Assembly: GCF_037444525.1 (NCBI RefSeq)
Contig: NZ_JBBIMD010000002.1
Coordinates: 117 to 64,116, forward strand
DNA length: 64,000 bases
Direction of reading: 5' to 3'
Origin: Thermus sp.
GTDB taxonomy: Bacteria; Deinococcota; Deinococci; Deinococcales; Thermaceae
The notes under the pieces were generated by a model. That model saw only the letters and a list, made by a program, of their open reading frames with translations, searched no databases and had not been told where the DNA came from. The translations under genes and the position numbers were made by a program. Positions 43,140-43,231 of this stretch are shown here, piece after piece. How positions within the stretch are numbered: position 1 is the stretch's first letter; each line of letters starts with the position of its first letter.

Positions 43140-43150
43140 CCCTCCTCCGG

Positions 43151-43231
43151 AAAAAAACCGGGGCATGCGCCCCGGGCGGGGAAGCCTCCCCGCCCTAAAG
43201 CCGGGGCATGCCCTTCATGGGGGACATTCTA
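43151..43231 (-). promoter_or_regulatory. metG leader: -10, leaderless uORF MKGMPRL and terminator-like hairpin
   Basis: TAGAAT (43231-43226), 7 nt, ATG 43218 to TAG 43195; hairpin ccggggcgcatgccccgg plus T7 just before the metG RBS. Confidence 0.6.

Follow-up and report, generated by a model that had tools for sequence, protein, structure and literature searches.

How is metG, the gene for methionine--tRNA ligase, controlled in Thermus, and what part does the ribosome play in this control? The question is raised by 68 nt of leader in front of metG on the minus strand of a 64,000-nucleotide stretch of Thermus sp. DNA (the window, meaning this whole stretch). A sequence-only reading of the window had proposed that the leader is a methionine-sensing attenuator built on a leaderless open reading frame (ORF) of seven codons, two of which are Met codons. 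Judged by sequence comparison, the metG leader is a real, conserved, metG-specific attenuator. It is very probably read by the ribosome and is probably methionine-responsive. The claim in full, that it acts as a ribosome-dependent transcription attenuator responding to Met-tRNA supply, is one that we hold with moderate confidence, and the detailed mechanism with three states described below is a more tentative proposal.

metG was located in 61 genomes of the family, and the upstream regions were read. In addition, a covariance model of the leader RNA was searched in 32 Thermus species genomes. Exactly one strong match, always directly 5' of metG, was found in 29 of the 32, so the conservation in other Thermus metG leaders that the sequence-only reading had named as a check is indeed seen. 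Scores were 79-96 bits in 28 genomes and 36.7 bits in one genome, whose copy is without hairpin 1, the stem-loop that follows the ORF. Besides the metG copies, no match in the 32 genomes exceeded 27 bits, and the weak second matches scored about 20-27 bits. The Thermus consensus consists of a TAnnnT -10 box, a gap of 5-8 nt (mostly 7), ATG/GTG AAG GGN ATG CCN, two free codons and TAG, followed by hairpin 1, a terminator and a T-run. The ORF always has seven codons and always stops with TAG. AAG GGN ATG is invariant, with all four Gly codons occurring; the start codon varies between ATG and GTG only, and codons 6 and 7 drift freely. The proposal that the ORF is leaderless is supported by the -10 box, which stands at this short distance from ATG/GTG in all Thermus copies. 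The fold energy of the leader is modest (z-score -1.86), so the case that the leader is more than a chance arrangement rests on this conservation.

The gene upstream, rpiA, suggests a simpler account of the region. The hairpin before metG could be an ordinary rpiA terminator, with metG transcribed by read-through or from an unrelated promoter, and the ORF and its repeat would be by-products of a G+C-rich palindrome. In agreement with this, rpiA lies directly upstream in all loci but one (in some only with a longer spacer), no terminator for rpiA was found in these loci beyond that of the leader, and the z-score is low. However, two Thermus genomes without the element join rpiA directly to metG, the rpiA stop abutting the metG ribosome binding site (RBS), and rpiA therefore does not need a terminator. 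Moreover, the -10 box, the start codon, the seven-codon length and the TAG stop are conserved while codons 6 and 7 drift. The compensatory change in the antiterminator of a sister genus and the homologous Met-codon leaders across the phylum, both described below, also speak against a plain rpiA terminator, which we consider very unlikely. In a third loss variant, the 5' strand of the antiterminator is fused to a sequence that resembles the 3' arm of the terminator, leaving a single hairpin, and the T-run is gone. By its sequence this variant looks like a fixed read-through form. The natural losses of the element (L012/G060, L013/G028 and L144/G064) fit the attenuator model.

Related leaders are present in front of metG outside Thermus. 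Of 28 other Thermaceae genomes, 27 have a leaderless ATG/GTG ORF of 13-29 codons with a -10 box 6-7 nt upstream of it. These ORFs end in ..R-M-M-x-x-(S/P)-R-R-stop and stay in frame across at least six classes of length. The aligned core contains an invariant CGAATG and then a 9-nt spacer of fixed length and free sequence. In all 27 leaders, (U/C)CCCG pairs with CGGGG of the terminator 5' arm and forms the antiterminator core. A 7-bp hairpin that includes the stop codon shows AU/GU/GC covariation, and the terminator has 8 bp. The antiterminator core lies at +16..+20 from the P site of a ribosome with the invariant Met codon in its A site. As read from the alignment, the core falls immediately beyond the ribosome footprint, in keeping with the classical geometry. 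With a covariance model of the non-Thermus type, one copy per genome was found, at metG. A methionine regulon was rejected, since the Thermus and the non-Thermus models gave no second copy before any other gene.

Leaderless leaders rich in Met codons extend to more distant genera. A Marinithermus-like genus carries MTLGARMMEFPRGG before metG, a Truepera-like genus carries MNWRMMQLHPGHG, and Deinococcus carries MTITFTVMMRMPPRS, MTFTSLTGMMMRMPRRP and similar leaders in 10 of the 14 sampled, with 13-17 codons and 2-4 Met codons. The Met motif in the leaders of related genera is invariant or tandem (..R-M-M-R-M..), a hairpin follows it, and a terminator-like stem is present in most. The presence of Met-codon leader ORFs before metG across the phylum supports the link to methionine that the sequence-only reading had drawn. 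Codon for codon, the Thermus ORF can be aligned with the 3' portion of the longer leaders (AUG AAG GGC AUG CCC CGG xxx UAG vs CGA AUG AAG CCC GGA CCC CGG CGA UAG). It may have arisen by a shift of the promoter onto the invariant Met codon or by an in-frame deletion inside an M-K-G...R-M-M-R-M-S-R-R leader, and both origins fit. By these alignments, the Thermus leader is the shortest form found of a metG Met-codon leader family that spans the phylum Deinococcus-Thermus.

Some loci of the related genera have features of their own. In Deinococcus (L097-L108), the interval from the leader terminator to metG holds a second conserved block, TTTTTCCGTATCCTGAnnGGTTGCC...CTCTCATCAGG, at 60-100 nt from the gene. 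It is present in most of those sampled, including some without a Met leader, and has no Rfam match. In a Meiothermus-like locus (L029, genome G029), the usual leader stop is lost; the ORF continues across the terminator to an ATGA that overlaps the start of metG. A switch to translational coupling is possible at this locus. In a sister genus of Thermus (L028, genome G008), the leader has a 24-nt in-frame 5' extension that resembles a partial tandem duplication of GAAGGGNRUGSS. The ancestral start codon is TTG there, and a new leaderless ATG lies upstream (MVTPEGRALKGMGLA).

Known RNA families were searched for in the window region and in ten related leaders. At permissive thresholds, Rfam gave chance-level matches only in both sets. 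No T-box was matched at E up to 10 (window region) or up to 0.1 (ten related leaders), and the covariance models of S-adenosylmethionine (SAM) riboswitches matched neither set. The view that the leader is neither a T-box nor a SAM riboswitch thus agrees with zero Rfam matches to either.

Direct reading of the minus strand found every feature that the sequence-only reading had described at its given position, and the parts follow one another in the order -10 box, seven-codon ORF, hairpin 1, terminator, RBS and metG (Table 1). After the rpiA stop TAA (43239-43237), GGGTG precedes the -10 box, and 18 nt separate the rpiA stop from the leader start. A consensus promoter scan of the metG leader reported no promoter. 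The last two C's of hairpin 1 (nt 44-45) double as the first two bases of the terminator. The 7-bp G+C stem with its tetraloop and T7 ends 11 nt 5' of the metG ATG. The 11-mer GCATGCCCCGG occurs twice in the window, both times within the element; 0.10 copies are expected, and two were reached in 1 of 100 shuffles.

Two further ATG codons lie close to these parts. The one in the terminator loop (43164-43166, minus strand) is in frame with metG, and the mechanical ORF list, which gives metG as 41274..43166, therefore begins it nine codons too early. Homologues of metG begin at MEKV, which corresponds to position 43139. The other lies in TAGAATG (43216-43227, minus strand), in frame with the leader ORF, and would give a 10-codon ORF on rpiA read-through RNA. 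This longer ORF is probably incidental, as it is confined to copies with a G directly after a TAGAAT -10 box. For annotation, the consequence is that the leader ORF is below the size that gene callers detect.

Table 1. Parts of the metG leader and the adjacent genes in the window (nt, position in the leader RNA).
Feature	Position in window	Strand	Remarks
Predicted -10 box TAGAAT	43226..43231	-	no -35 recognised; sits 7 nt 5' of the leader ORF
Putative leaderless 7-codon leader ORF, ATG AAG GGC ATG CCC CGG CTT TAG (M-K-G-M-P-R-L-stop)	43195..43218	-	
AUG1	43218-43216	-	codon of the leader ORF
AUG4	43209-43207	-	codon of the leader ORF
UAG	43197-43195	-	stop codon of the leader ORF
P1 5' strand of the predicted antiterminator, nt 6-16, GGGCAUGCCCC	43203..43213	-	
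Hairpin 1, 9 bp, nt 24-45, GGGCGGGGA/GGCT/TCCCCGCCC	43174..43195	-	begins at the G of the stop codon
Predicted intrinsic terminator stem-loop, nt 44-61, CCGGGGC-GCAU-GCCCCGG	43158..43175	-	terminator scan and folding
P1 3' strand, nt 47-58	43161..43172	-	spans the 5' arm, the loop and some of the 3' arm of the terminator
Terminator U-tract, T7	43151..43157	-	terminator scan agrees
metG Shine-Dalgarno sequence GGAGGAGGG	43140..43148	-	preceded by CC
metG, methionine--tRNA ligase, 621 aa	41274..43139	-	regulated gene; NCBIfam NF008900, 780.8 bits
rpiA	43237..43920	-	gene upstream, context only; NCBIfam

The leader can adopt two mutually exclusive folds, the antiterminator (P1) and the terminator. 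In the minimum-energy fold (-45.6 kcal/mol at 37 °C), nt 6-16 of the ORF pair with nt 47-58, the 9-bp hairpin 1 is enclosed and the terminator is excluded. P1 is the minimum-energy fold in nearly all Thermus copies, both at 37 and at 70 °C. Pair counts over 22 sequences gave 95.5% of cells paired for P1 and 98.5% for hairpin 1. Single changes in P1 are all wobble-compatible within Thermus, where the sequences are too alike for double changes, and two pairs of hairpin 1 covary (GC/AU/GU). The sister genus has GGUUCG or CUUCU as its terminator loop and CGG ACC UCC or GGG CUG GCC as codons 5-7 of the ORF. Loop and codons have changed together, and the pairing between ORF and terminator is retained, which is a compensatory change. 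AUG4 is also retained in the sister genus, although its A10 and U11 are unpaired there. The sequence-only reading had assigned the ORF copy of the 11-mer to an antiterminator, and this assignment is upheld by the folds at both temperatures and by the compensatory change.

The same loops bear on the idea of a protein-controlled switch, in which methionyl-tRNA synthetase would bind an anticodon-like CAU loop or a dimeric repressor would bind the GGGCATGCCC palindromes in the DNA. The GCAU loop of the terminator does contain the Met anticodon CAU, and the two palindromic copies lie 43 nt apart. Nevertheless, the loop has 4 nt and not 7, it is GCGU in at least six species, and it is replaced in the sister genus by the two loops given above. 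The sister genus also loses the second palindrome while the RNA pairing is kept. Mimicry of the anticodon by the GCAU loop was rejected on account of these loop changes. Control by either protein is accordingly a highly improbable explanation of the element.

The effect of a ribosome on the folds was modeled by masking. The bases covered by the ribosome were forced unpaired, and pair probabilities were computed at 70 °C. With no ribosome, P1 dominates and all terminator pairs have a probability of about 0. When codons 2-4 occupy the A site, hairpin 1 remains intact and C44 and C45 stay bound in it. The five upper pairs of the terminator then have a probability of about 1.0, the two basal pairs reach only 0.10 and 0.34, and GG is left between the 5-bp stem and the U-tract. 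An A site on codons 5-6 leaves hairpin 1 partly stripped. Hairpin 1 is melted from codon 6 (codon 7 with a shorter footprint) through the stop codon, and the 7-bp stem then stands at 0.9-0.98. Met4 is thus the last waiting position, or the last but one with the shorter footprint, that leaves hairpin 1 whole. The stop of the metG leader is constantly UAG, and its G forms the G24-C45 pair; this constancy fits selection on the competition for C44 and C45. A classical 1:2/2:3/3:4 scheme would make hairpin 1 the 1:2 pairing and a CCCC:GGGG mini-hairpin the 2:3 pairing; it was ruled out by the at-stop terminator probability. In folds over growing transcript lengths, P1 nucleates at a length of 48-50, before the 3' arm of the terminator exists. 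Folded at full length, the RNA pairs its U-tract with GGAAAAG, immediately 3' of the metG start codon, and leaves the metG Shine-Dalgarno sequence in a loop, not hidden by leader sequence.

These folds suggest how the leader may work. The start of transcription, the translation of the ORF, and the direction and size of the response are those that we infer from sequence and folding. The promoter whose -10 box lies 7 nt upstream would start the RNA at AUG1, so that the seven-codon ORF would be translated as a leaderless message. In state (a), with no ribosome, nt 6-16 would pair with nt 47-58, and RNA polymerase would read through because P1 nucleates before the terminator 3' arm is made. In state (b), a ribosome held at or before Met4 would leave hairpin 1 whole. 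Hairpin 1 would keep C44 and C45, the terminator would be limited to 5 bp, and termination would be weakened. In state (c), a ribosome beyond Met4, at codons 5-7 or UAG, would unzip hairpin 1, C44 and C45 would complete the 7-bp stem, and transcription would stop. Hairpin 1 would therefore compete for the two basal C's of the terminator until the ribosome passes Met4. The sequence-only reading had given no role to the 9-bp hairpin and to Met4, and this role is proposed in the present analysis. The stem of an intrinsic terminator must reach the U-tract, so a 5-bp stem followed by a 2-nt spacer should terminate worse.

If the three states hold, metG transcription would rise when either initiator or elongator Met-tRNA is short. 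Both shortages, the one through lack of initiation and the other through waiting at Met4, would reduce termination, and smooth translation to the stop codon would maximize it. The sequence-only reading had proposed that read-through occurs when the ORF is unoccupied for want of initiator Met-tRNA, and this agrees with the folding model. The start codon AUG1 may itself be the sensor, since the RNA would begin there and the entire ORF would serve as one antiterminator strand. The leader would then gauge the timely loading of a 70S ribosome with fMet-tRNA(fMet). We regard sensing by the start codon as possible, though somewhat doubtful. A classical attenuator would lead to a deadlock at metG, in which no initiation means no stalling and thus permanent termination. 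Attenuation that senses initiation, if true, would avoid such a deadlock for the enzyme that charges the initiator tRNA.

The masked folds can also be read with the opposite sign. Fast translation and release would free the ORF, P1 would form and metG would be read, while a stall at Met4 would favor the terminator and lower metG. A ribosome at Met4 covers nt 1-21, which includes the entire 5' strand of P1, and the five upper terminator pairs still form with a probability of about 1; both points agree with such a reversal. On the other hand, a synthetase would then be lowered when its product is scarce, opposite to the classical logic that leuS and trpE follow in this genome (see below) and, to our knowledge, to every known control of an aminoacyl-tRNA synthetase. 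The model also gives the strongest terminator with the ribosome at the stop codon, and in the related genera a ribosome waiting at the invariant Met codon would not quite reach the antiterminator core. The reversed logic is distinctly improbable.

Other leaderless leaders of the same genome provide a comparison. The whole assembly was scanned for loci in which a -10 box, a short leaderless ORF and a terminator precede a long ORF. Few were returned, and three of them, at leuS, trpE and lysJ, clearly resemble the metG leader in style. The leuS leader MRPARLRP (contig C5, about 1930-2055, plus strand, locus L111, outside the window) is a leaderless 8-codon ORF in a classical 1:2/2:3/3:4 attenuator. 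Across 30 Thermus genomes its rare pair AGG-CUA never changes, the flanking codons vary, and its stop varies between UAG, UAA and UGA. The distance from CUA to segment 2 in this leader is 14 nt, identical to that from the first base of AUG4 to the base of hairpin 1 in the metG leader. The trpE leader MAPVFPWWWPG (contig C8, about 30606-30700, plus strand, outside the window) is leaderless, with 11 codons, three tandem Trp codons and a 9-bp terminator. By its sequence it is a textbook trp attenuator in leaderless form. The lysJ leader MSARGKT (contig C91, about 3816-3890, plus strand, outside the window) has seven codons, again leaderless, including Arg and Lys codons, and a terminator-like hairpin. 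The gene behind it encodes [LysW]-aminoadipate semialdehyde transaminase (769 bits). A lysine-codon leader peptide has reportedly been shown to attenuate the lysine cluster of T. thermophilus. In folding, the untranslated leuS and trpE leaders have a terminator probability of 0.97-0.99, and a ribosome placed at the cognate codon frees the antiterminator. From these three leaders, leaderless ORFs of 7-11 codons with cognate codons appear to be a habit of this organism, and by analogy one cognate codon can serve as a sensor.

These leaders help in weighing a further alternative, in which the switch depends on translation without being methionine-specific. General loading of ribosomes on the leaderless 5' end would be sensed, a shortage of free 70S ribosomes or initiation factors would give read-through, and the Met codons would be only the centre of an AUG/CAU palindrome. 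Any ribosome on the ORF blocks P1, which spans nearly all of it; AUG4 is paired to the terminator loop, and only one internal Met codon is present in Thermus. All of this would suit general loading. In contrast, the element is confined to metG, Met codons are invariant or tandem in related genera, in which they face a different pairing partner, and the sister genus keeps AUG4 despite its unpaired bases. The leuS, trpE and lysJ leaders also have their own cognate codons. A switch that senses general loading is unlikely.

Several points weigh against an attenuator responsive to Met-tRNA supply. In Thermus the ORF contains only one internal Met codon, AUG4, whose conservation could be structural since the P1 palindrome is centred on it. 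Because of the four-fold degeneracy of GGN and CCN, selection on the peptide and selection on the RNA are inseparable at these codons. State (b) differs from state (c) by two base pairs only, and the regulatory range may therefore be small. A ribosome stalled at Met4 masks P1; if the 5-bp stem terminates well, a shortage of elongator Met-tRNA would lower metG. Masked equilibrium folding is crude, and the classical leuS control gave only 0.5 against 0.95. The same folding gave mixed results for the non-Thermus leaders. The hairpin may also serve rpiA, which lacks a separate terminator. Finally, rpiA read-through RNA is predicted by folding to form P1 in part, and part of metG expression may thus be unregulated.

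Attenuation by a leader peptide is a textbook mechanism, and the pheST operon of E. coli with its leader peptide pheM is a case from the synthetase operons. pheM has a Shine-Dalgarno sequence and 14 codons, five of which are Phe codons; the RNA follows the classical 1:2/2:3/3:4 scheme and terminates when untranslated. As in pheST, a synthetase gene lies under a short leader peptide with cognate codons, alternative hairpins and an intrinsic terminator. Unlike pheST, the metG leader is leaderless, has seven codons with one internal Met, and is predicted to read through when untranslated. The metG leader shares a cognate-codon ORF and competing antiterminator and terminator with the classical trp, leu and his attenuators and with the leuS and trpE leaders of the same genome. 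It differs from all of them in being without segment 1, as the ORF itself is one strand of the antiterminator. The classical 1:2 pairing, by which an untranslated leader terminates, is absent from the metG leader; this pairing is a feature of a subtype and not of the whole kind. The T-box of metG/metS in Firmicutes binds uncharged tRNA directly and is an untranslated RNA of roughly 200 nt or longer. It has the gene, the proposed signal (charging of Met-tRNA) and the terminator/antiterminator output in common with the metG leader, which in contrast is far shorter and gives no T-box match.

The nearest published relatives are leaderless. In D. deserti, transcription starts were mapped, and 14 leaderless leader peptides were proposed for synthetase and biosynthesis genes, with cysS shown (de Groot et al. 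2014, PMC4007540). The leaderless starts there have a -10 motif immediately upstream and no conserved -35 element (PMC4007540). These leaders resemble the metG leader in several ways: the phylum is the same, the transcript starts at the leader AUG, as is predicted for metG, the -10 box is adjacent, the peptides are rich in the cognate residue, and attenuation is proposed (PMC4007540). Unlike the present analysis, the main text does not name metG, and it gives no structures, covariation or Thermus forms (PMC4007540). Mycobacterial leaderless short ORFs with poly-Cys were shown experimentally to sense an amino acid through ribosome occupancy, with a translational output (Canestrari et al., bioRxiv 10.1101/834739). 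The output of the metG leader differs from theirs in being a predicted intrinsic terminator with a U-tract. A search of the full-text literature found no published metG leader peptide and no published expression data, and Rfam contains no model of a Met-codon leader of metG; an earlier prediction is possible, for example in the D. deserti table of 14 leaders. The metG leader thus belongs to a known kind. Its new features are the Met codons, the leaderless ORF of seven codons, the use of this ORF as an antiterminator strand and the predicted read-through of the untranslated RNA.

The ribosome and RNA polymerase of T. thermophilus are standard structural models. A reconstituted Thermus translation system also exists (PMC3439929). 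With these, so small a native attenuator would be practical for the biochemistry and structure of coupled transcription and translation. If the untranslated RNA reads through, the design would sense translation initiation in addition to elongation. It would then show how translation can regulate the very enzyme on which translation initiation depends.
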